64,000 nucleotides of DNA from Alphaproteobacteria bacterium (lineage in GTDB: Bacteria; Pseudomonadota; Alphaproteobacteria; UBA7887), in contig OZ241745.1 in assembly GCA_965201115.1 (NCBI GenBank), positions 2,953,166 through 3,017,165 of the forward strand, in the 5' to 3' direction. The translations under genes were made by a program, and so were the position numbers. This document shows, piece by piece, positions 33,033-54,945 of this stretch. The number at the start of each line of letters is the position of its first letter. The stretch's first letter is position 1. The notes under the pieces are model-generated. The model ran no database searches and was not told where the DNA came from. It saw only the letters and a list, made by a program, of their open reading frames with translations.

Positions 33033-33108
<76 letters not shown>

Positions 33109-38758: not shown

Positions 38759-39814
38759 ATGGACATGACACAGGAACACCGTATCCCGAAGGTGGCGGAT
38801 GCCGTCGCTGACGCGCTGGACGCAGACGTCATACTGTACAACGGTCCGATATCCCGGCCGCAAGATAGTCATCTCATTGATGCCTGCGTAAGGAGGCGTC
38901 GACGGACGAACGCTCTCCTCATGCTGGTGACGATGGGCGGCGACCCCGACGCCGCGTACAGGGTTGCGCGGTGCATACAAACGAAGTACGATCATTTCGT
39001 CATGTATGTGTCGGGCTGCTGCAAGAGCGCGGGAACGCTGGTGGCAACCGGCGCGCATGAACTTGTCTTTTCCGATCATGGGGAATTAGGGCCGCTCGAC
39101 GTGCAGATACCTCGCGAGGGCGAACTTGTGAGAAAGCATTCGGGGCTCGCCATGGGTGATACCCTGACTGTTCTTCATGGCCGGGCCTTCGACGCATTCG
39201 AGGGATTCTTTCTGAACATTATGAAACGAGGCGGTCAATCGATATCCACCGGAACGGCGACCCGAATTGCTGTAGATCTCACCGGCAAGTTATTCGCGCA
39301 GCTCTACGGACAGTTGGAGCCGTTAAGAATAGGCGAGTCGGTCAGGGCGTTATCTGTAGCATATCATTACGGCGAGCTCTTGCTGCGGGAAGGCCGTAAT
39401 ATAACGCCGGAATCTCTGGCGGTTATCACATCGGAGTATCCATCTCACGGATTTGTGATCGATCGGGCGGAGGCGGAGACTTTGTTTCACAAGGTTCGGG
39501 AACCATCTCCGGAGGAAGCGGAATTGGCGCGGGCGTTGGAGCATCTGGCCCTTTCCGAGACACCTGTAGAGCACGGACAATTGTGCTTTAAGTTCTTATC
39601 CACCGAGACGCCGACCGAGCAAGACGCTCTGGTGGGAAACAACCTGGAGGGAGGCGCCGATGCACGAGAACCTGGATCGCCTGAGGAGGCAGAGGCTGGC
39701 AAAGCTGCTGAAAAGAAGACACGACAGCTTGCTAAAGTCAGTACCGAAAAGAAGGCTGTTGCGGGAGCCGTTACGACCGTGGGCGATACGGCCGCAAAAC
39801 CGGGAGGAACGTAA
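38759..39814 (+). CDS. ClpP/SppA-fold (SDH-family) serine proteinase-like protein, in a lower-GC islet
   Basis: LLMLVTMGGDPDAAYRVARCIQTKYDHFVMYVSGCCKSAGTLVATGAHELVFSDHGELGPLDV (Clp-fold). Local GC about 55-60% against about 72% in flanks. Confidence 0.55.
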   Translation: MDMTQEHRIPKVADAVADALDADVILYNGPISRPQDSHLIDACVRRRRRTNALLMLVTMGGDPDAAYRVARCIQTKYDHFVMYVSGCCKSAGTLVATGAHELVFSDHGELGPLDVQIPREGELVRKHSGLAMGDTLTVLHGRAFDAFEGFFLNIMKRGGQSISTGTATRIAVDLTGKLFAQLYGQLEPLRIGESVRALSVAYHYGELLLREGRNITPESLAVITSEYPSHGFVIDRAEAETLFHKVREPSPEEAELARALEHLALSETPVEHGQLCFKFLSTETPTEQDALVGNNLEGGADAREPGSPEEAEAGKAAEKKTRQLAKVSTEKKAVAGAVTTVGDTAAKPGGT

Positions 39815-45096: not shown

Positions 45097-45936
45097 ATGC
45101 TTGCCGTCCGATGCGCCGCATGCGCCGCCCTCGCGTTGCTGTTGTGCGGGTTCCGGGAGATCGAGATCGACACGCCTTACCAGGCGGTGGCGCTGGCGAA
45201 CCGGGCGTTCGCCGAAGAGCGCTACCGCGAGGCCGCCGATCTTTACGCGGCGGCGGACGGGATGCTGCCCGGCCGCCCCGAGATCGCTTTCAACCGCGGC
45301 GCCGCCCTGTATATGCTGCATGAGTTGAAGCAGGCGCGCGCGGCGTTCGTCAGCGCGCTCGAGACCGATGATCGCGGCCTCGCGGCGCGCGCGCACTACA
45401 ATCTGGGCAATGTGCAATACCGCGTGGCGATTAACGCCATGCGCACCTTTCGCGACGCCGTGACCCCGATTCGCGAGGCGATGGAAAGCTACCGCGAGGC
45501 GCTCGCGCTCGACCCCGATCTCGCCGACGCCATGTACAATCTGGAGCTCGCCGACCGCATGTACGACGAGCTGCGCCGCCAGCGCATGCAGGGGATACAG
45601 AACCCGGAAGCGGTCGATGTGACGCCGTCGCAAAACCAGGGCCAGTTCTTCGACGAAGAATCGGACCGCGAGCGCGCGCGCGACCGCGAGGACGCGGCGG
45701 ACAGCATGGATATGGAAGGAGAACAAGGCGCGCAAGGCGAGCAGGCGCCGCAGGGCGCGCCGCCGCAAAGCGAGTCGGCGCAAGCCCAGGCCGGCGGGGC
45801 GCAGCGCGAAATGACCGCCGAACAGGCGCAGGACATGATGGAGCTGGCCCGCGACCGCGCCCGCGCGGCGGAGGCCCTCCGCCAGCAATGGCGCCAGGCC
45901 CGCATGCGCGACGGCGAAGCCGCCCGCCCCTGGTAA
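45097..45936 (+). CDS. TPR-repeat protein BatC-like with acidic/Gln-rich tail
   Basis: TPR-like helices and C-terminal low-complexity region. Confidence 0.7.
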   Translation: MLAVRCAACAALALLLCGFREIEIDTPYQAVALANRAFAEERYREAADLYAAADGMLPGRPEIAFNRGAALYMLHELKQARAAFVSALETDDRGLAARAHYNLGNVQYRVAINAMRTFRDAVTPIREAMESYREALALDPDLADAMYNLELADRMYDELRRQRMQGIQNPEAVDVTPSQNQGQFFDEESDRERARDREDAADSMDMEGEQGAQGEQAPQGAPPQSESAQAQAGGAQREMTAEQAQDMMELARDRARAAEALRQQWRQARMRDGEAARPW

Positions 45937-45954
45937 ACGCCGCCCGGGACGCCC

Positions 45955-46030
45955 GCGCACACGCCAACCCCGCCGAAGGCGGGGCCCGGGACCGCGGCCT
46001 TCCAGGCCGCACGTTTCCGCGCGGCTCGGC
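45955..46030. repeat. REP/MITE-like repeat unit
   Basis: caaccccgccgaaggcggggcccgggaccgcggccttccaggccgcacgtttccgcg. Confidence 0.5.
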
Positions 46031-46276
46031 GTCGGCGGGAAAGCGCGAACGGCGCGTCCCTCACGGCGGCAGCCGTGGCAGTCGAGACGCGCAGGCGGGG
46101 CGCCCGCATCGCGATGCCGCGAAAGCCGCGCAGGAAACCCCTCGCAGCGTGTATTATCCGGGTTGCGCGGGCTGGCCGGAACGGGTATTAACCGTTGCCG
46201 CCTGCGGCCCGCCGGCGGCGCGGGCGCCGTTTATGCAGGACAACCGCGTTCGTCGGTAATCCGGGAAGAATACGGT

Positions 46277-47134
46277 ATGCGGGATATGAAAGAGCTCGAA
46301 ATCGACGGCGGCCTACTGCGCGATCGGTCGCCTCTGACGAGCTTTCTCGCCACCTTGGACGAGCTGGAAGCGCCTTGCAGCGTCGTGGCCTGCGGTCTGC
46401 TGTGCGCGGGCAAGAGCACGTTGCTCAACGCGCTTGCCGGACGGACAGGCGAGCCGTACTTCGCGACCGGCGCAGGCCGGACGACCCATGCGTGCAAGAG
46501 CCTTGACGACCGCGCCGGCTTCCGGTGGATCGACACTCCCGGCCTCGATGTGAGCGGCGAGGACGACGCGGAAGCCGAAAAAGCGATTCGCGCGGCCGAC
46601 GTGCTCTTGTTCGTGCATCACCCCGGGACCGGCGAACTGCACGAGGCCGAGGCGGATTTCCTGCAGGCCGTCGCGACGGGCGCGGACACGCGCCACGGCC
46701 TTGCCGAGCGCATGTGCGTGGCGCTGACCCACAAGGAGTCGATAAGCGCCGACGAACTCGGCCGGCTCAGGGACGCCGTTCGCCGGCAGGTCGCATCGGC
46801 GACAGGCGCCGACCCGGCGCTGTTTCCGGTGGCTTCCACCGTTTATCTCGGGGCAACGCGCAAGTTCCAGCCGAAATTGGTCGAATTCAGCGGCGTGCCC
46901 GCGCTTCGGACCCGTCTGATGCATGGCGCCGAAGGCTCCCGCGCCCGCCGGTGGAAGCGCGTCGCCAATCTTGAGGAAGAACTGCACCGGCGGATCGACG
47001 CGGAAATCGCGCATCGGGCCGGGCGGCGGCGCACGCTCGAACGCGAGATTGCCAATGTCGAGAAGGCGTTGCACGAAGAGTTCGCATCGTTTCTGGAGCA
47101 GCTGGACCAACGGCTTGCCGGCCTCGACGCGTAG
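46277..47134 (+). CDS. Small P-loop GTPase (dynamin/GIMAP-like G-domain; GxxxxGKS, DTPG)
   Basis: CGLLCAGKSTLLNALAG, WIDTPGLD, LTHKES. 285 aa. First gene of a lower-GC island. Confidence 0.6.
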   Translation: MRDMKELEIDGGLLRDRSPLTSFLATLDELEAPCSVVACGLLCAGKSTLLNALAGRTGEPYFATGAGRTTHACKSLDDRAGFRWIDTPGLDVSGEDDAEAEKAIRAADVLLFVHHPGTGELHEAEADFLQAVATGADTRHGLAERMCVALTHKESISADELGRLRDAVRRQVASATGADPALFPVASTVYLGATRKFQPKLVEFSGVPALRTRLMHGAEGSRARRWKRVANLEEELHRRIDAEIAHRAGRRRTLEREIANVEKALHEEFASFLEQLDQRLAGLDA

Positions 47135-47163
47135 CCGGAAGCGGAACAACGGAGAACGGAATC

Positions 47164-47565
47164 GTGTTTCTTGCCCCCCTCACCGACGCCCAGAAGCGGG
47201 CTTTCATGGCGCTCGCGGCCATGGTCGTCGATAGCGACGAACGGGTTACCCGACAAGAGCGCGAACTCATGGCCAGTCTGAGCGCCGAGATGGGCATGCC
47301 GGACGCGCCGGAAGGCATGGACCTCGCCGCCGCCGCGGCCGCGTTCGCCGACTGGCCCGGCAAGGTGCGCGCCATGCTCGAACTGATCGGCATCGCCCGC
47401 GCCGATTGCGATTTCGACAAGCGGGAAAGCGCGCTCATCCGCCGGATCGCCGAGGCGTTCGGGATCGCCCCCGGCGAGCTCGAAGTGATGGACGACTGGG
47501 TCTTCCGGCAGCTCGCCCTGGTGCGGGAAGCGAACTACCTGATAACCGAATTGCGGGAGGATTGA
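47164..47565 (+). CDS. TerB-like domain protein
   Basis: 133 aa. ALAAMVVDSDERVTRQERELMASL... and IARADCDFDKRESALIRRIAE resemble the TerB fold. GTG start with GGAGA ribosome-binding site. Confidence 0.5.
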   Translation: MFLAPLTDAQKRAFMALAAMVVDSDERVTRQERELMASLSAEMGMPDAPEGMDLAAAAAAFADWPGKVRAMLELIGIARADCDFDKRESALIRRIAEAFGIAPGELEVMDDWVFRQLALVREANYLITELRED

Positions 47566-47567
47566 CC

Positions 47568-48059
47568 ATGCCCCTGCCATTGTTCTGGATCCTGGGCGCG
47601 GCCGGCGTAGCAGCCGCTGCCGCCGCCACGGCTTGGGCGGCCTCGGATAACGACGAAGCTGTTACCGAGCCCGACGAGGCCGGCGAGTTGCGCGAACGGG
47701 AGGCGGAGCGTGATCGCGAGAAGCGGCGCGAGCGCGCCGAGCGCTGGAAAGAACGGGGATTGCACGACATGGCGGGCTGCCATTCCGCCTCCGGACGCAG
47801 CCCGTCCGGGCTGACATGCGCGGAGTACTGGCGGAGCGAGGCCGCGCCCGGCGCCGGGCAAGCGGACCGCGTCGAGAAAGCCCTGGACATGTTCCTGCCC
47901 AAGGACGGCCCGAGCGATGCGAAAAACGAGGCCGCCGCCCTGCTGCGGGAAGAAGACGATCTGAGGGCGATGAAGACGGCCGTGGCGGCGATGCGCGCGC
48001 GGGCGCAGGAACGTGAGGCCCAATCGCAATCGGAGCCGCCGCAGCGGAGCGAAGCATGA
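47568..48059 (+). CDS. N-terminally membrane-anchored charged coiled-coil protein
   Basis: MPLPLFWILGAAGVAAAAAATAWAA, then an E/R-rich helix. GGGAGG ribosome-binding site. Stop overlaps the next start. Confidence 0.45.
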   Translation: MPLPLFWILGAAGVAAAAAATAWAASDNDEAVTEPDEAGELREREAERDREKRRERAERWKERGLHDMAGCHSASGRSPSGLTCAEYWRSEAAPGAGQADRVEKALDMFLPKDGPSDAKNEAAALLREEDDLRAMKTAVAAMRARAQEREAQSQSEPPQRSEA

Positions 48060-49885
48060 GTTCGGCAGGCGACACGGGTGCGGTCGGACGCCCCGAATTC
48101 CTCGAGGCCATGAGCCGGCTTCAGGGCCGGTTCGACGAGGCGGGCGGGCAGGTCAAGTCGCAAGAGGCCGAATTCGACCGCGATTTGGACGATGCGATCG
48201 CGCGTATCGAGCGGGAGCCGCTCTCGCGGGAGGGTGGAGCGCTTCCGCCTCCCGTCGAGAAAGCCCTGCATGAAGCGAGAGAAATCGTCGATGCGGCCGT
48301 CATCGGCTGGCGGGAGCGTGTCGGGAAATACGACCGCAACACCGAATTCCGGCGCGACCACGGGGATTCGCTGCTGGTCTATGTCTATGGCTTGGTCAAG
48401 GCGGGCAAGAGCGCCCTCGGCAATTTCGTCGCCCATGGCTGCGAGCGCCCCGATGACGCGTTTGTCGCGACGCTGTCCGCCAGCGGGAGCGGCCCCGAGT
48501 TCTTCGTGCGCTCGGTTGCCTCGGGGGATCCGGACGCTATCGACAAGGCGAACGGGCGGCTCGCCCGGGCGCGACGGTTCCATACCGATGTCGAGGAGGC
48601 GACGGACCGCATCCAGGGGTTCAAGATGCCGGGGCTGACCTGGATCGACTCCCCGGGACTCGGGTCGGTCACGGAGGCAAACGGCAAACTCGCACGGGAG
48701 TATGTCGAAAGCGCCGACCTCGTTGTTGTCGCAATGAACAGCGCACAACCCGGCCGCAGGACCGAGCGCGACGAAGCGAGACGCCTGATGCGCTTGGGAA
48801 AACCGATGATGGTCTTGCTCACGCGCGCCGACAACATCGACATGGACGTGGACGAAAACGGCCGGATTGTCAAGACATTGGTCATGAAGTCCGCCGATGA
48901 TCGGCGGGATATGAAAGAATGGGTCGAATCGCAATTGAAGGAAGCGGTCCGGATCGAAGGTCGGAACGCGCCCCGAATCCCGCAAATAACAACGATATCG
49001 GTGCGTTATGCCGCGGAGCATCCGGATATCGATGGAGCGCGCGAGAGCGGCCTGTCGGAACTGTTCGGCCTGTTGAGCGAGGTCGCCGAAAGCGAAGGCG
49101 TGACCATGAAGCGGGAGGCCCCGGCCCGTATGTTTCGCGCCTTCGTCCGCGATATCGCCGGGGACGAGCAAAACTTCGGCATGGGCAACATCGTCGGGCG
49201 TCTGGACCGGGTCCGGCGGTCGATAGCCCGAAGCCGCGAAGGACACGAGGAACAGGGGCGGCAGGCGGGAGACCGAGCCGCACGGGATATCGAGGCGGCG
49301 ATCAATGAGGAAGTCGAGAGCCGTCGCAAGACTCTCGACAATGCAGGCCTCCACGAGGCAGTAAACAGACAGGCTCGCAAGATACTCGAACGGCGGGTGT
49401 CCGAGGCCGCGGCGGAGATGGTCAAGGATATCGACATGGAGATGCTATCTTTGGCAGCGATGGGGCAAGAACACGCGCCGGCGTTGAAGGTCGTCGCTAG
49501 CGTAGTGATAAAGCCGGATCGCGAGCGCCGCGAGCACCTTGCCTTCGGTGCCCCCGTTGGCTTGACCGGGACAATAGCAGACGTCGTGATAGGATTTTTG
49601 TTCGGCGGTCTGGTCGGGGCCGTCGCGGGAGCCGCTGCGGAAGCGCCCAGCGGCGCCACGACAAACGGCTCCGCCGCCGGTTCCAGAGTCGAGTACATCG
49701 ACAACGCCGCCGAGGTTGCGAAAGAACTGGCGATCATTAAGAGCAACGAAGTGCGGAAAGCAGCCTCGGAGGCGTTCGCGCGTTTGAACGATGAGGTTCT
49801 GAAACCTCTGGAAACGCGCATCGACAATATCATCGACGGCCTTGAGGAATTCCGAAGCAAATGGCAGAAGGAGATCGCGCGATGA
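48056..49885 (+). CDS. Bacterial dynamin-like protein 1 (GTPase, stalk, membrane paddle)
   Basis: 609 aa. G1 GLVKAGKSALGN, G3 WIDSPGLG, G4 LLTRAD. Hydrophobic paddle VIGFLFGGLVGAVAGAAA near the C-terminus. Confidence 0.75.
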   Translation: MSSAGDTGAVGRPEFLEAMSRLQGRFDEAGGQVKSQEAEFDRDLDDAIARIEREPLSREGGALPPPVEKALHEAREIVDAAVIGWRERVGKYDRNTEFRRDHGDSLLVYVYGLVKAGKSALGNFVAHGCERPDDAFVATLSASGSGPEFFVRSVASGDPDAIDKANGRLARARRFHTDVEEATDRIQGFKMPGLTWIDSPGLGSVTEANGKLAREYVESADLVVVAMNSAQPGRRTERDEARRLMRLGKPMMVLLTRADNIDMDVDENGRIVKTLVMKSADDRRDMKEWVESQLKEAVRIEGRNAPRIPQITTISVRYAAEHPDIDGARESGLSELFGLLSEVAESEGVTMKREAPARMFRAFVRDIAGDEQNFGMGNIVGRLDRVRRSIARSREGHEEQGRQAGDRAARDIEAAINEEVESRRKTLDNAGLHEAVNRQARKILERRVSEAAAEMVKDIDMEMLSLAAMGQEHAPALKVVASVVIKPDRERREHLAFGAPVGLTGTIADVVIGFLFGGLVGAVAGAAAEAPSGATTNGSAAGSRVEYIDNAAEVAKELAIIKSNEVRKAASEAFARLNDEVLKPLETRIDNIIDGLEEFRSKWQKEIAR

Positions 49886-51462
49886 AGAACGATGGAACCC
49901 CGATACGCGAAACGCTGTCGGAAGCCGCCTCCATACTGCAGAAATATCTGGGCGCCGCTGAGGTCGAGGACCTGCGCGCGTTCGTTGAATCTCGCCTCGA
50001 CGACGGGAAGCCCACCGCGATGGTGTACGGCATATACAATTCGGGAAAGAGCACGTTGCTCAACGCGCTTTGCGGCCGGGAGCTGGCCCGGGTGGCCAGC
50101 CGGCCTGAAACCGACCGCATAACCCCGTATGTCTGGGAGGGTACGGAGATTCTCGACACGCCGGGGATCGACGCGCCGCAGGAGCACGAATGGGTCAGTC
50201 GCGAAGCGCTCGACCGCACGGACGTCATCCTCTTCGTCATGGATTCCTCGTCCACATTCGAGGAAGCCGCCGTTTACGACGAAATTATCGGAATACTCGA
50301 TCGGAACAAACCACTCATGATCGTGGTCAATAACAAGGACGGGTTGTCGAGAGCGGACGAAAACTACATCCGTATTTGCGACAAGATACAGGAGAACCTG
50401 GCCGCCGCGGCCGCGCGGCGGGGCCTGCCTCCCGATCGCGCCTCTCCGCCGATCCGGATGGCGGACGCCAGGACCGGACTCAAGGGGCGTCTGGCAAACA
50501 AGCTGAAACTGGTATATGCCAGCGGCCTCGCCGACCTTGAAGCGGACCTGAAGCGGATGCTGGGCGCCGCCGGGTTTCACGACGTGGTCAATACCGTCGG
50601 AAGGCGATTGCTTGACGATCTCGACCGCGCGCTTGTCAAGGCGTCGCCGAGCAACGCCGACGACGGGTCGGCCCGCCGGATTGCCGACGGCGAAGCCGGA
50701 TTGCACGGCGAGAAAAGCCGGGTAGAGAGCGCGCTTTCTCAGGAGCGGCTTCGCGCGGTTGCGCAGTTCCGGCGGCGCGCGCTCGCAGTGTTCGATAGCC
50801 AGCGGCCGAAAGAACTCCTCGGAGGGGCGAAAGAACTTCTCGGAGCTTGTGTCGAATTCAGCGAAGCGGTAAGGCGCGCCATCGCGTGCGAACTGGCGGC
50901 GACGCGCAAGCGCTTCCCCGAACTGGGCCCGCCGCCGATGGACGATTCCGGCGCGATGGGGGCCGCCGCCGAGGAAATCGCGGCCGGCGCCCCTCGGGAA
51001 GACGGGGCCCGGGATGCCGACGGCGCGCCGGATACCGAGCCGGAGGTTGTGAGACGGCTAATCTTGGGCGCCGTCGCGGCCATCGCCAAGTTCTTCCCGA
51101 AGACACTGGGCCGCTTCATACCGCTTGTTGGGCCGATTGTAGAGGTTGGCGTGGCGGGATGGCGATATTATTCCAATCTCCAAAGGGAGAAGGAAAAGAA
51201 AGAGGCGATGCAGCGCGCAGCGCGGCTCTGGGCCAATCACATCGAGGAGTCGGCCGACCGCCTGAACGACAAGGCGAAAGAGATCGTTCGTCGGAGCGTG
51301 GACGACGCCTTCGCGCCGGCCGAGGCGGATCTGCGCGCCAAGAGGGAGCAGTTGGATAAGGAAGCCCGCGCGATGGCCGAGGATCGCACAATCCTCAACG
51401 CTTGCCGCGAGCGGATGAAGCGGCATCTGGAAGCCATGCCGCCCGCGCCGCGCGTCGCATAA
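49882..51462 (+). CDS. Bacterial dynamin-like protein 2
   Basis: 526 aa. G1 GIYNSGKSTLLNAL, G3 LDTPGID, G4 VNNKD. Hydrophobic segment AAIAKFFPKTLGRFIPLVGPIVEVGVAGW. AAGGAG ribosome-binding site. ATGA overlap with DLP1. Confidence 0.75.
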   Translation: MKNDGTPIRETLSEAASILQKYLGAAEVEDLRAFVESRLDDGKPTAMVYGIYNSGKSTLLNALCGRELARVASRPETDRITPYVWEGTEILDTPGIDAPQEHEWVSREALDRTDVILFVMDSSSTFEEAAVYDEIIGILDRNKPLMIVVNNKDGLSRADENYIRICDKIQENLAAAAARRGLPPDRASPPIRMADARTGLKGRLANKLKLVYASGLADLEADLKRMLGAAGFHDVVNTVGRRLLDDLDRALVKASPSNADDGSARRIADGEAGLHGEKSRVESALSQERLRAVAQFRRRALAVFDSQRPKELLGGAKELLGACVEFSEAVRRAIACELAATRKRFPELGPPPMDDSGAMGAAAEEIAAGAPREDGARDADGAPDTEPEVVRRLILGAVAAIAKFFPKTLGRFIPLVGPIVEVGVAGWRYYSNLQREKEKKEAMQRAARLWANHIEESADRLNDKAKEIVRRSVDDAFAPAEADLRAKREQLDKEARAMAEDRTILNACRERMKRHLEAMPPAPRVA

Positions 51463-51480
51463 CGGCGCCGGCGCGGCCCA

Positions 51481-51700
51481 GCGGGGCGCCAACATGCAGA
51501 CTTCCAGCCTGCCCGCGCGCCGAACGCCTGGGAGCGCGGGCGTCCTGCCCGCACGTCTCAGTGTCTGTACCGAAATGCTTACCCCGCCGAAGGCGGGGCC
51601 TGGGACCGCGGGCTTCCAGCCCGCACGTTCCCGCAAGCCGCGATGATGGCGAGGAGGCGCGCCTGCGGCGCCCCGCCCGGCGCCGCCCGCCGAACGGGCC
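51481..51700. repeat. REP/MITE-like repeats (two or more units) downstream of the dynamin island
   Basis: ...ctgcccgcacgtctcag...ccccgccgaaggcggggcctgggaccgcgggcttccagcccgcacgttcccgcaag.... Confidence 0.5.
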
Positions 51701-51721
51701 GACAACCATAACCCCCGCCAT

Positions 51722-53400
51722 AACCGACCGTTAGCCCGCATTTCTCATACGGGTGGTTGTCGTGCGGTTTGTGCGTCGTTGGTTATCGTGCGTGCGTGTT
51801 TTCGTGGTCGGGGGGCTTGGCGGGCATTTTCGGGGCGCGTTGGGGCGGTCCGCCGTTTGGCGGTGGGCCGCGTTCCGGGCTGTTCCTGCGTTGTTGAGGG
51901 GAAGGGCGAGAGTGGCCGCGTTACGCCGCGGCGGCGGATAATCGTTGGCAGGCGATACGGAACTCGCGCTGGAAGGGATGCGCGGCGTTCATGGCGATCT
52001 TGACGCGGCGCACGGTGACGCGGACCCAAGCGCCGATCTTGAGCAGTTTCAGGCGCAGGCTCCCGCATGTGGCGACCGCCAGTTCGGTGTAGTCGAGGCC
52101 GATGCGGCGCAGTGCGCACAGCAACACATAAGCCATGGACGCGAACCACAGGCGCAGCTGGTTGGCCCGCATGGCCCGCGTCGACGTGCGGTCGGCGAAC
52201 AAGTCGAGTTGGCACTCCTTGATCCGGTTCTCCATCTCGCCGCGTTGGCAGTAAAGCCGCTCGTAGAGATGCCGGGCGCGGACCCGATGGGTTGCAATCG
52301 AGGTGACGACGAAACGCGGGTTGGCCTTGCCGTGGGTCCACTCGGCCTTGGCGACGACGCGGCGCGCGCAGCTCCAGCTGTCGCGCGTCCTCCACATGAA
52401 GTCCTTGAAGCGGCGTTGCGGCTTGCCCGAACCCGCGCTGTGCGCTTGCGCCGCCGCCAGTTCGGTCTCGACTTCCGCCGCCAGACGGGGGTTCCGCGCC
52501 AAGCCCAACAGGTAATCGACGCCGTTGGCCTCGCACCACGCCATCAGCGCCTCGCGGGCGAACCCCGAATCGGCGCGCACCATTATCCGCACGCGGGGCC
52601 AATGCCGCCGCAACCGCGACACAATCCGCTCAACAGTCTCCACGGCCCCGGCCGCCCCATCCTCATTCGCCGGGCGCAACCGCGCCGCCAAAAGATGACG
52701 ACCGCAAGTCGCATAAAGCGGAAGATAGCAATAGCCGCCGTAGTAGCCGTGGAAAAAACGACCCTCCTGGCGACCGTGAAGCCGATCGTCCGTGGCGTCG
52801 AGATCGATAACCAAGCGAGCCGGGGGCCGCTTGTGCGCCTCCACAAACAGTGTCAGGAACAAATCCTCAATCGCCGAGCCGTCATGCGCGATCCGGCAAT
52901 ACCGCGACGGCCCCGCGCCCCCCAACTCAAGGCGGTTCAGCGTCGATTTGCCCGCAAGCGGCGCACAGTCCGAACGACGCGACGCCAACTTCCCCGCCAA
53001 CACGGCCATGACCGGATCGTGACGCAACGCATCGTGGTCGTTCAGGTCCTCATATCCCAATGCGATCCCGAACACGCGCTGCATGACCAGCGTCCGAACA
53101 TCGTGCTCGACAAGATGACGCGCACGCCCATCGGTGAAACAGGCCGCAAACCGATCGACCAGACCCACCGCCGCATCCGCCCGGCCAAGCAACAATGCCC
53201 CCGCGTCCGACGTCACCGTCCCGCCGTCGAACGCCGCCACAACCGCGCGACCGTCGACCGGTTGAAAACCGCCCAGCGCCGTGCTACACTCCGTCTGCAT
53301 CGGGGAACACCTCCGTGCCGCGATATGTGCATACTCAACAACACTATATCGCACACAGAGCCCCGATGCCCCAAACCCGTATGAGAAATGCGGGTTAGCC
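51722..53400 (-). mobile_element. IS1380 family insertion sequence with about 25-bp imperfect terminal inverted repeats
   Basis: Left IR at 51722-51747 (cgttagcccgcatttctcatacggg); right IR at 53376-53401 (reverse complement ggctaacccgcatttctcatacggg). Single transposase ORF. Inserted within the REP cluster. Confidence 0.75.
51921..53300 (-). CDS. IS1380 family transposase (DDE)
   Basis: 459 aa, MQTECSTALGGFQPVDGRAVVAAFDGGTVTSDAGALLLGRAD... typical of IS1380. Confidence 0.85.
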   Translation of the reverse strand: MQTECSTALGGFQPVDGRAVVAAFDGGTVTSDAGALLLGRADAAVGLVDRFAACFTDGRARHLVEHDVRTLVMQRVFGIALGYEDLNDHDALRHDPVMAVLAGKLASRRSDCAPLAGKSTLNRLELGGAGPSRYCRIAHDGSAIEDLFLTLFVEAHKRPPARLVIDLDATDDRLHGRQEGRFFHGYYGGYCYLPLYATCGRHLLAARLRPANEDGAAGAVETVERIVSRLRRHWPRVRIMVRADSGFAREALMAWCEANGVDYLLGLARNPRLAAEVETELAAAQAHSAGSGKPQRRFKDFMWRTRDSWSCARRVVAKAEWTHGKANPRFVVTSIATHRVRARHLYERLYCQRGEMENRIKECQLDLFADRTSTRAMRANQLRLWFASMAYVLLCALRRIGLDYTELAVATCGSLRLKLLKIGAWVRVTVRRVKIAMNAAHPFQREFRIACQRLSAAAA

Positions 53401-53474
53401 CCGCCGCGCCAACCCCCGCAGGGGAGGACCATGGTCCTCTCCCGCCCCCCGCCCCAAATCGCTTTAATATCCGC

Positions 53475-54545
53475 ATGACCGAAGCACACGCCGCCGCCGT
53501 CCCCGCCGACGGCGAGCCGCGCGCAGCCGCCGCGCCCGACAACGCCGCCGCCGCGCCCACCGAACCCGAAACCCAACCCCCCGGCGACCCCCTCCGCCAC
53601 AACCGCGGAAGCCGATCCACAATCGCCGACCTCCCCAACACCGTCCGAGCCGATATCTGCCGCGAAATCCGCGCGGGACCCCCCGACACCGCCATCGCCG
53701 AAACCCTCCGCGCGCGCGGATACCCCGTATCCCGATCCGCCATATACCGCTTCCGCAAAGCCGCCGCCGACAGCCTCGCCCAATGGTCCGAAATCCGCGA
53801 CGCCGCCGCACTCTGGAGCGAAGGCGGAACCCACGAAGCCCTCGCCGAAATGCTCCGCGTCGCCGCCTTCGCCATCGCCGCGCGCATCGACCCCGCCGCC
53901 CCCGATGCCGCCGACAACACCCGCGGCATCGCCCGCATGGTGCGCGCCATCCGCGACCTCGCCGCCGCCGAAGCCGCGCGGAAAACCGCCGCCGCCCAGG
54001 CCGGCCCCCGCCGCGGCGCGCCCGGTTCCATCGACGACCCCCGCCTGCCCTTGCTCCCGCCCCCGAACACGTGGGACGCCGACGCCCAGGCCGCCGCCAA
54101 CCCCGGCCCCCCCAAGCCGCCCCGCCGCCCGTGGACCGACCGGGACTGGCTGGAATACGACAGACACATCCAGGAGGGCGAACGCAAGGCCCGCGAAGCC
54201 GAACGCGAACGCCGCGAGGCCGAACGCGAATACGACCCCGCGTACGACCCCGAAACCGCCGAACGCCCCGCCGCCGAAGCCCCCCGAGCCCCGCGGAGCC
54301 CCGCAATGCCCCGCAACGCTGCCGAAGGCGCGAACTGCCCGGGACTGCGGGCGTCCCGCCCGCACGTTCCCGCAAGGCGCGATGTCGGCAGGGAAGGCGC
54401 GCCCGCCCGCCCCGGGCCCGGCGGATCCCCGCAATGCCCCGCAACCGCCCCCCGGAACCGCCGGGCCCGACCGCCCCGCGACCGCCGAAGCCCCGCCCGC
54501 CGCCGCCCCGCCCGCCTCGAACAACCGAAACGGCAGCAATGCTGA
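53475..54545 (+). CDS. DUF3486-like (phage Mu gp27-like) HTH protein, probable prophage remnant; C-terminus runs into the REP array
   Basis: STIADLPNTVRADICREIRAGPPDTAIAETLRARGYPVSRSAIYRFRKA. Residues beyond about 54290 are REP-derived. Confidence 0.4.
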   Translation: MTEAHAAAVPADGEPRAAAAPDNAAAAPTEPETQPPGDPLRHNRGSRSTIADLPNTVRADICREIRAGPPDTAIAETLRARGYPVSRSAIYRFRKAAADSLAQWSEIRDAAALWSEGGTHEALAEMLRVAAFAIAARIDPAAPDAADNTRGIARMVRAIRDLAAAEAARKTAAAQAGPRRGAPGSIDDPRLPLLPPPNTWDADAQAAANPGPPKPPRRPWTDRDWLEYDRHIQEGERKAREAERERREAEREYDPAYDPETAERPAAEAPRAPRSPAMPRNAAEGANCPGLRASRPHVPARRDVGREGAPARPGPGGSPQCPATAPRNRRARPPRDRRSPARRRPARLEQPKRQQC

Positions 54546-54945
54546 GCGCCTGTACCGAAATGCTTGCCCCGCCGAAGGCGGCGCCCGGGACCGCGGGCAT
54601 CCTGCCCGCACGTTTCCGGCAGGCGCGATGTCGGCAGGGAAGCACGCCCGCCGCCCCCCGCTCCCCGGCCCCCGCGGCATCGAGACGCGCGCGCGAGACG
54701 CACACGCCAACCCCGCCGAAGGCGGGGCCCGGGACCGCGGGCATCCTGCCCGCACGTTCCCGCAAGGCGCGATGGCGGCAGGGAAGGCGCGAACGTCCCG
54801 GTCGCGCCCGCCCCGGGCCCGGCGGAGCCCCGCAATGCCCCGCAACCGGCCCCGGAACCGCCGGGCGCGAACGTCCCGCGACCGCCGCCGTCCCCGCCCG
54901 CACGTTTCCGCGCCGCGCGATGTCGGCACGAAAGCGCGAACGGAC
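54290..54945. repeat. Array of five or more degenerate REP/MITE-like units (not CRISPR)
   Basis: Repeated ccccgccgaaggcgg(g/c)gcccgggaccgcgggcatcctgcccgcacgtt(c/t)ccgcaaggcgcgatg(t/g)cggcagggaagg with GC-rich variable linkers. Confidence 0.55.

Follow-up and report, generated by a model that had tools for sequence, protein, structure and literature searches.

What five tightly packed genes, encoding three P-loop GTPases, a TerB-like protein and a membrane-anchored protein, do for the alphaproteobacterium that carries them is the question raised by a block on contig OZ241745.1 (assembly GCA_965201115.1), of which positions 2,953,166 to 3,017,165, a stretch of 64,000 nucleotides (nt) referred to here as the window, were analysed. 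An earlier note, made from the letters alone, had proposed a novel membrane-remodelling or antiphage system. The reading that we come down on, with somewhat more confidence than doubt, is that of a mobile five-gene operon in which an Eleos-like pair of dynamin-like proteins (DLPs), p4 and p5, is accompanied by an accessory module of three proteins, p1 to p3, the whole acting in anti-phage membrane surveillance. The composition of the operon is near certain, the anti-phage role being the uncertain part.

Regarding this composition, the five co-directional and tightly packed genes of the earlier note were recovered with the same coordinates and lengths (Table 1), and the exact products, with the proposed start codons, are entries in a public protein collection. 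Genes p1 and p2 are separated by 29 nt and p2 and p3 by 2 nt, and the p3/p4 and p4/p5 junctions are ATGA overlaps of 4 nt each. In addition, GGAG-type ribosome-binding sites are found upstream of p2, p3, p4 and p5, so both the overlaps and the ribosome-binding sites already remarked upon are present, the latter for genes 2-5. A promoter and terminator scan of positions 45800-51900 gave nothing exceeding shuffled expectation.

In the orthologue alignments, none of the three GTPases shows any variation in its G1 and G3 motifs. In p4 they read GLVKAGKS (residues 112-119) and DSPG (198-201), followed by a G4 of the dynamin-like TRxD kind, TRAD (256-259), and its G motifs are invariant among five orthologues; the GKS, DSPG and TRAD of p4 and the GKS and DTPG of p1 had all been read correctly before. 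This protein scores 28 bits against Pfam Dynamin_N (cut-off 27) and matches the PADLOC LeoBC profile (PDLC03841) with E 5.5e-9, a match whose best stretch is the C-terminal part only. The PADLOC LeoA and LeoBC profiles match the orthologues more fully than the proteins of the window. For p4, the orthologue at locus L091 (L numbers denote loci of other genomes) matches LeoBC nearly end to end (residues 39-620, E 7.6e-16). A profile search of PDB sequences with p4 gave no match. The hydrophobic paddle predicted for its C-terminal part was found as a glycine-zipper segment at about residues 498-538 (nt 49547-49669), and the strongest hydrophobic segment of the whole cassette, the only strong one among the three GTPases, lies at p4 residues 510-528.

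Compared with the orthologue of L086, the paddle is locally hypervariable though the DNA is 87% identical overall; several insertions and deletions, adding up to gaps of 21 and 30 nt, leave the reading frame open. Frameshift decay was considered for this segment and rejected, given the open frame and net length differences that are multiples of three. The hypervariability may reflect diversifying selection on a surface contacting the membrane or a target.

The second DLP, p5, has G1 GIYNSGKS (50-57), G2 T77, G3 DTPG (92-95) and a non-canonical G4, N-(N/D)-K-x-G, in the region 50329-50343. GKS and DTPG had been pointed out before and stand, and the NNKD reported with them has to be given up, being out of the NKxD register and having an aspartate that is not conserved in the orthologues. 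The PADLOC LeoA profile matches p5 from end to end (E 1.7e-32), which, together with the LeoBC match of p4, bears out the kinship of the pair to LeoA/LeoBC that had been suggested. Because its sequence was ambiguous, Pfam and PDB giving mainly Era/Der-type G domains, p5 was modelled. In fact, the profile search of PDB sequences returned mostly Era and Der G domains, with weak and short matches to 5owv (a Campylobacter jejuni DLP) and 2j68 (the Nostoc dynamin-like protein BDLP). The AlphaFold2 (AF2) model, built from 14 homologues with a predicted local distance difference test score (pLDDT) of 80.8, shows a G domain between N-terminal helices, three long helices corresponding to a neck or trunk, and a C-terminal helix of about 100 residues. 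In a Foldseek search the first ranks were taken by the C. jejuni DLP1/2 pair, Nostoc BDLP, IniA and mitofusins; structures 5owv, 2j68, 6j72 and 4aur were matched, and LeoA was among the best matches. On this model p5 has the bacterial dynamin fold. A putative paddle occupies about residues 345-412 (nt 50914-51117), a helical region of low confidence; the hydrophobic segment once attributed to p5 was not borne out, no stretch of it being strongly hydrophobic in the hydropathy plot.

Housekeeping GTPases were also considered for the cassette proteins. Era, Der, YihA/EngB, MnmE and YlqF were discarded, since the best scores were at most 45 bits against cut-offs of 116-953 and the genomic context is variable; PDB matches to housekeeping GTPases cover the G domain only. 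The assignment to the dynamin type and not to Era, Der or YihA has thus held, on NCBIfam scores far under the cut-offs and on p5 and p1 models that match structures of the dynamin superfamily. The NCBIfam DynA model (NF052648) scored 13.7 bits, below its cut-off of 1600.

The smallest of the three GTPases, p1, carries G1 GLLCAGKS (40-47), G2 GRTT, G3 DTPG (86-89) and a G4-like THKE (151-154), the latter region (46727-46738) showing T-H-x-(D/E) instead of the canonical NKxD. Pfam MMR_HSR1 and Dynamin_N match it, as does the PADLOC LeoA profile (E 2.3e-19, model positions 59-322 of 559). Its AF2 model (pLDDT 88.6) consists of a G domain followed by a single C-terminal helix of 64 residues, and the top Foldseek matches were Toc34/33, IniA, IRG, GIMAP (GIMAP2/7), EHD2 and a minimal mitofusin. 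Toc34/33, IniA, the IRGs, GIMAP2/7, EHD2 and mitofusin are membrane GTPases that work by G-domain dimerisation. An hhalign alignment of p1 with the N-terminal half of p5 showed homology to residues 41-296 of the latter (probability 99.2%, E 2e-19); p1 is a paralogue of the p5 head in truncated form, i.e. a mini-dynamin. A ribosome-type GTPase was ruled out by scores of at most 19 bits against the NCBIfam housekeeping equivalogs, whose cut-offs are 42-380, and hydropathy revealed no transmembrane segment in p1. Since the canonical NKxD is absent from both p1 and p5, their nucleotide specificity may be relaxed or other than GTP. The p1 family is large, with at least 550 clusters at 50% identity in a profile search at E <=1e-30.

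The third gene supplies the membrane anchor. At the N-terminus of p3, where the earlier note had placed an anchor, there is a conserved hydrophobic helix (the MPLPL helix), MPLPLFWILGAAGVAAAAAATAWAA, at about nt 47574-47642, with a hydropathy peak at residues 3-21. Beyond it follow an acidic linker, a charged helical region and, in the orthologue alignment, a conserved LDxFLPKxGP motif. No family was found for p3 in Pfam, NCBIfam or PHROG. In L091, L003 and L098/L099 p3 precedes p1 in a single in-frame fusion, giving a protein of 467 amino acids (aa) in L098/L099; in L091 the open reading frame (ORF) reaches upstream of the called start and takes in the MPLPL helix, and in L003 the fusion gene is interrupted by an insertion sequence (IS). 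Moreover, 15 of the 147 top representatives retrieved with the p1-family profile measure 401-500 aa, and about 10 of these 15 start with a transmembrane helix that is followed by a linker, acidic or rich in Ser, and by a charged coil. Because this fusion recurs, and is the strongest evidence for a physical link, p3 probably tethers p1 to the membrane. An N-out/C-in topology would follow, since the GTPase needs cytoplasmic GTP.

Two of the related loci show damage by insertion sequences. In L003 (5488-10004) a DDE transposase splits p3::p1 and leaves the C-terminal part of p1 in frame with DLP1, as an ORF of 809 aa; in L002 (7300-8024) an IS remnant lies between p3 and DLP1.

As for p2, the claim that it is TerB-like is upheld by Pfam TerB (PF05099; E 2.5e-11, 44.3 bits, cut-off 24.4), with a weak match to the PDB TerB structure 2jxu (E 0.004). 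It has a conserved acidic motif, ARADCDFDKRES, and hydropathy gives no transmembrane segment, which points to a soluble protein. Over the orthologous loci the identity is 68-99% for p2, 44-83% for the DLPs and 31-91% for p3, p2 being the most conserved gene of the cassette and 99% identical to its L086 orthologue. Because of this conservation, p2 is regarded as an integral component and not as a passenger.

A p2-like TerB protein (32% identity over 95% of p2) is also encoded on the Vibrio echinoideorum plasmid NZ_AP025485.1 (L094, 8040-12498), in the order WYL regulator, TerB, PDC-M09A-like protein, PDC-M40B-like 'ATPase' and YkgJ CxxCxxCC protein; the PDC-M09A-like protein is weakly similar to the C-terminal part of LeoBC. 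A YkgJ-type gene and a DUF697 GTPase gene occur as well 3' of the dynamin cassette of Pseudomonas sp. PDM04 (L089, 14834-16265).

How far such a cassette is new can be judged by comparison with the systems already described. Eleos was reportedly first described, as 'Dynamins', by Millman et al. 2022. Like the cassette, it has adjacent, co-directional and overlapping DLP genes with intact P-loops, the LeoBC-like one first and the LeoA-like one second; its LeoA profile is the one that covers p5 entirely, and relatives of the cassette lie in defence islands. Nevertheless, the similarity is remote, under the NCBIfam LeoA/HP0731 cut-off, and Eleos is described with two genes (three if LeoBC is split), whereas the cassette adds a mini-dynamin, a membrane anchor and a TerB protein. 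The two-gene LeoBC/LeoA system protects Bacillus subtilis against jumbo phages, both P-loops being required (bioRxiv 10.1101/2022.05.11.491447).

In enterotoxigenic Escherichia coli (ETEC) the gene order is leoC-leoB-leoA (PMC4159319), and the order of p4 and p5, LeoBC-like then LeoA-like, is the same. The ETEC set also comprises three genes, one of which, upstream of the DLP genes, encodes a small GTPase-related protein anchored in the membrane. However, in LeoC the N-terminal half of a split G domain (P-loop and switch 1) is joined to a C-terminal anchor, and LeoC completes a LeoB that has no P-loop, while p1 has a complete G domain (G1-G3 and a G4-like motif) and is anchorless, the anchor being the separate, N-terminally anchored p3, and p4 has its own P-loop. 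The identification of p1 as LeoC was rejected on this account, p1 having moreover no LeoC profile match.

With C. jejuni DLP1/DLP2, Nostoc BDLP, DynA and IniA/IniC the cassette shares the p5 fold class, the heterotypic tandem pair and a paddle on one partner; none of them is described with a head-only GTPase, a dedicated anchor or TerB. In B. subtilis, DynA has been documented to contribute to phage resistance. The structures that p1 matches best (Toc34/33, GIMAP, IRG and EHD) are likewise small G domains with helical extensions that undergo G-G dimerisation at membranes, and several of them are immune proteins, although they resemble p1 in fold alone (14-21% identity), which implies no orthology. 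Bunzi and Shango, which contain TerB, are defence systems treated apart from the dynamins (bioRxiv 10.1101/2022.05.11.491447). They resemble the cassette in having a TerB domain protein within a membrane-associated anti-phage system, but its partners are a membrane protein in Bunzi and an ATPase and a helicase in Shango, with no dynamins, and p2 matched none of the Bunzi and Shango PADLOC profiles.

In the literature no paper was found that links TerB to a dynamin cassette, an earlier mention in Anantharaman et al. 2012 being possible; full-text searches for TerB with dynamin, LeoA/Eleos, GIMAP or conflict systems retrieved only the Millman paper, in which TerB and dynamins stand separate. The literature found on Eleos gave no mechanism by which Eleos-type dynamins detect infection or act on membranes. 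To judge from the sequence comparisons, the p4/p5 pair is of a known, Eleos-like kind, and what is new is the three conserved partners, i.e. mini-dynamin, anchor and TerB. The novelty proposed for the architecture stands in so far as no TerB-dynamin paper was found; its isolation was overstated, given the Eleos profiles that match p4 and p5, the p1 clusters counted above and the approximately 30 plasmids described below.

The cassette recurs in several forms. Form A, with p1, TerB, p3, DLP1 and DLP2, is that of the window, L086, L088, L001 and L002/L004; form B, with TerB, the p3::p1 fusion, DLP1 and DLP2, is that of L091, L003 and L098/L099; form C, with p1, a p3-like anchor, DLP1 and DLP2 and no TerB, occurs in Pseudomonas sp. 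PDM04, L096, a Photobacterium plasmid and the Klebsiella plasmid NZ_CP060424; and form D, the DLP pair alone, was found on an Acetobacter plasmid. The five modules occur together in at least seven unrelated genomic contexts, and the co-occurrence that had been set beforehand as a test is therefore observed. The closest locus, L086, has DLPs 83% identical to those of the window and shares its Bat synteny, the cassette of the window lying downstream of a MoxR-DUF58-BatA-BatB-TPR operon. At 44-60% identity, in L088, L001 and L002/L004, the neighbours are all different and the cassette is usually beside transposases, so that L086, L088, L001 and L002/L004 (DLP identity 44-83%) have four different neighbour sets.

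The TerB-less four-gene form is common and also plasmid-borne. About 30 plasmid records of Klebsiella, Raoultella and Citrobacter have p1-like and p5-like matches separated by about 2.4 kb, as in NZ_CP060424, the plasmid examined, whose cassette genes are annotated as GTPase, hypothetical, dynamin family and GTPase. Altogether 40 plasmid records have a p1-like gene, 24 of them conjugative. No relatives were found in JGI metagenome contigs with the TerB and p4 profiles, nor any phage-borne copies in IMG/VR (p2 and p4) or in phage genomes (tblastn with p5); the PHROG scan with p5 gave two weak G-domain matches only. A scan of a genome collection with the p5 alignment was swamped by generic P-loop patterns, only L006 looking related.

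Horizontal acquisition, as claimed before, is plausible from composition and context. The GC content of the cassette is 63-70% by gene and 60-69% by 500-nt window, and that of the four flanking Bat-operon genes measured is 69-76%; at third codon positions (GC3) the values are 75-84% in the cassette versus 86-90% in those four genes. The reported dip is real and modest, while the figure given for it (58-62%) was too low. The lower GC3, the differing contexts and the transposases beside most copies agree with acquisition, and the supposed bracketing by repetitive extragenic palindromic (REP) repeats does not survive, as described with the surroundings.

Two observations on other loci may be added. 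Directly upstream of the five-gene locus in L001 (4929-5993), on the same strand, an AAA_22/ORC-CDC6-like ATPase of 354 aa is encoded, with no PADLOC match. In L005 (159-6720) the order is DLP, radical-SAM, radical-SAM, DLP, one of the radical-SAM proteins being B12-binding; these DLPs are p5 relatives with about 42% identity over the G domain, and the cluster appears unrelated to the cassette.

The defence reading draws on the neighbours of the relatives. The Klebsiella plasmid carries nearby a CBASS cyclase with a 4TM (four-transmembrane) effector, a Ppl-like ATPase and the toxin-antitoxin pairs CcdAB and GNAT/DUF1778. On the Photobacterium plasmid the cassette sits inside a type III CRISPR-Cas locus, between cas1-cas2-csm6 and the RAMP genes. 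Neighbours in Pseudomonas sp. PDM04 are an MkoA-like helicase (Mokosh-like), a BrxR/WYL regulator and HsdR; in L096, RADAR RdrA/RdrB; in L091 and L003, WYL, AbiEii, HigB and Uma2; and in L098, HipBA, ParE and HicB. Such anti-phage neighbours, in forms B and C, are the classic signature of defence genes. Anti-phage or anti-invader defence by membrane surveillance would be the most likely role.

The mechanism proposed here is modelled on other paired bacterial DLPs, on GTPases that become active when they dimerise and on the part that Eleos and DynA play in defence against phages. In it, p3 would keep p1 on the cytoplasmic side of the inner membrane, and p4, with its glycine-zipper paddle, would join p5 in a heterodimer bound to the membrane, as happens in other bacterial DLP pairs. 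The TerB protein might sense a membrane change linked to infection or damage (depolarisation, for instance, or an influx of ions or metals) and pass the signal on to the mini-dynamin tethered there, whose G domain would pair with that of a DLP, like those of dimerisation-activated GTPases, and start or stop a GTP-driven assembly. As a result, the membrane might be sealed or remodelled, or the infection aborted.

A more specific version, in which the cassette is a distinct three-GTPase immune system of membrane surveillance, with TerB as sensor and the tethered mini-dynamin licensing DLP assembly through a heterotypic G-G interface, is offered tentatively as a possibility. If it were true, this would be the first identified trigger module of dynamin-based bacterial immunity, and a prokaryotic counterpart of the small immune GTPases of the GIMAP/IRG type that stand beside large dynamin-family GTPases. 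The three conserved and genetically separable partners are concrete handles on the sensing and regulation of dynamin-based immunity, and the natural TerB-less and fused forms make the contribution of each part directly comparable. The four-gene form, moreover, is on clinically relevant plasmids of Klebsiella, Raoultella and Citrobacter, under annotations that say no more than GTPase, hypothetical or dynamin family.

Several points weigh against the defence reading. The cassette of the window lies among housekeeping and metabolic genes, in neither a defence island nor a prophage, and all the five-gene unfused loci of form A, that of the window included, have housekeeping genes and insertion sequences as neighbours and no defence genes. 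Defence neighbours were counted by locus, non-statistically, in a handful of loci; an association with known defence systems is seen in the relatives of forms B and C and not in the window or the other five-gene loci. Kinship to Eleos is likewise distant. Against the NCBIfam LeoA/HP0731 family (NF041922, cut-off 325 bits) p5 scores 24.4 and p4 13.1 bits, which makes them, by these scores, relatives of the family and not members, and the profile search of PDB sequences with p5 did not recover LeoA. The assignment of p4 as a DLP is drawn from profile matches and the glycine-zipper segment. Between p3 and the middle proteins of the four-gene cassettes there is no detectable homology (hhalign probability 17%), only the same design. 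The roles given to p1, p2 and p3 are deduced from domain identity and fusion, and the anti-phage role, for the cassette and its close relatives alike, is one that we infer.

The rival explanations start from the same facts. An unlikely one, to be taken seriously nonetheless, is that of a module for membrane maintenance or stress repair, in which the two DLPs would act by tethering or fusing damaged inner membrane or by promoting the release of vesicles, as has been proposed for DynA, IniA/IniC and LeoABC, and in which TerB would connect the module with oxidative, metal or tellurite-type envelope stress. However, the Bat synteny is confined to the closest lineage and the neighbours are all different at 44-57% identity, and a patchy, IS-flanked and plasmid-borne spread, with relatives amid CBASS, RADAR, CRISPR and Mokosh-like genes, suits accessory defence better. 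Repair and defence are not mutually exclusive, DynA doing both. Transposase genes, which adjoin the cassette in the window, L002, L004 and L088 and lie within it in L003, together with the conjugative and mobilisable plasmids that carry relatives (24 of the 40 records with a p1-like gene being conjugative), could instead speak for a selfish or mobile-element function, such as the exclusion of incoming plasmids, of conjugation or of vesicle-mediated DNA, the cassette being carried by IS elements and plasmids to the benefit of these elements and plasmids themselves. This we consider improbable, since no constant partner of conjugation or replication type accompanies the cassette, no copies were found in phage collections or IMG/VR, and defence systems ride the same vehicles, so that the context does not discriminate.

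Finally, the copy in the window might be a decaying remnant, its five ORFs past function. It adjoins an insertion sequence and a REP array, the p4 paddle is strongly unlike that of the 83%-identical orthologue, and relatives exist with IS disruption (L003) or an IS remnant between p3 and p4 (L002). Decay is nevertheless very hard to reconcile with five intact ORFs that have conserved starts, ribosome-binding sites and translational coupling, with the conservation of all G motifs, with paddle gaps (21 and 30 nt) that keep the frame, or with a TerB protein 99% identical to that of L086, and we give it hardly any weight. The operon of an Eleos-like DLP pair with an accessory module in anti-phage surveillance is thus the reading retained.

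Table 1. Coordinates within the window of the cassette genes and of the adjoining repeats and insertion sequence.
Feature	Position (nt)	Strand	Product or remark
p1	46277-47134	+	285 aa
p2	47164-47565	+	133 aa
p3	47568-48059	+	163 aa
p4	48056-49885	+	609 aa
p5	49882-51462	+	526 aa
REP-like repeat, upstream copy	45970-45997	+	context, outside the system
REP-like unit, about 134 nt, downstream	51557-51690	+	context; more copies at 54542-54819
IS1380-family insertion sequence	51732-53397	-	PF13701 DDE_Tnp_1_4, E 5.6e-147

Concerning the surroundings, the REP-like repeat flanks the cassette with its upstream copy and one at 51584-51611; it was counted in seven copies over the window against none expected by chance, scattered as a dispersed genomic repeat, and its use as an island boundary was for this reason discarded. 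The IS1380 copy reported next to the cassette is indeed there, with its transposase and with terminal inverted repeats of 23 nt (51732-51754 and 53375-53397) that are 96% complementary, and it marks a mobile or plastic region. The other genes checked in the window encode a TonB-dependent receptor, a pyridoxal phosphate (PLP) enzyme, an enoyl-CoA hydratase, CofD, a glutamine amidotransferase, a cytochrome c' and GCS2.

Beyond the insertion sequence, the segment 53400-55700 is REP-dense and strongly GC-skewed, with many direct and inverted copies of units of 40-134 nt, and the ORF 53388-54545 (+) has a translation that resembles, by eye, a helix-turn-helix protein ending in a highly charged tail. 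Rfam gave a single match in the window, a tRNA gene at 33036-33108 (-). Just upstream of the MoxR/Bat operon, an ORF of 351 aa (38759-39814, +) has a GC content of 55-64% in 500-nt windows versus about 71% for the window. It gave no PADLOC match, it matches phrog_21683, of unknown function, with E 2.2e-67 and, weakly, a ClpP/NfeD-type protease fold, and it looks like a separately acquired, phage-related gene.

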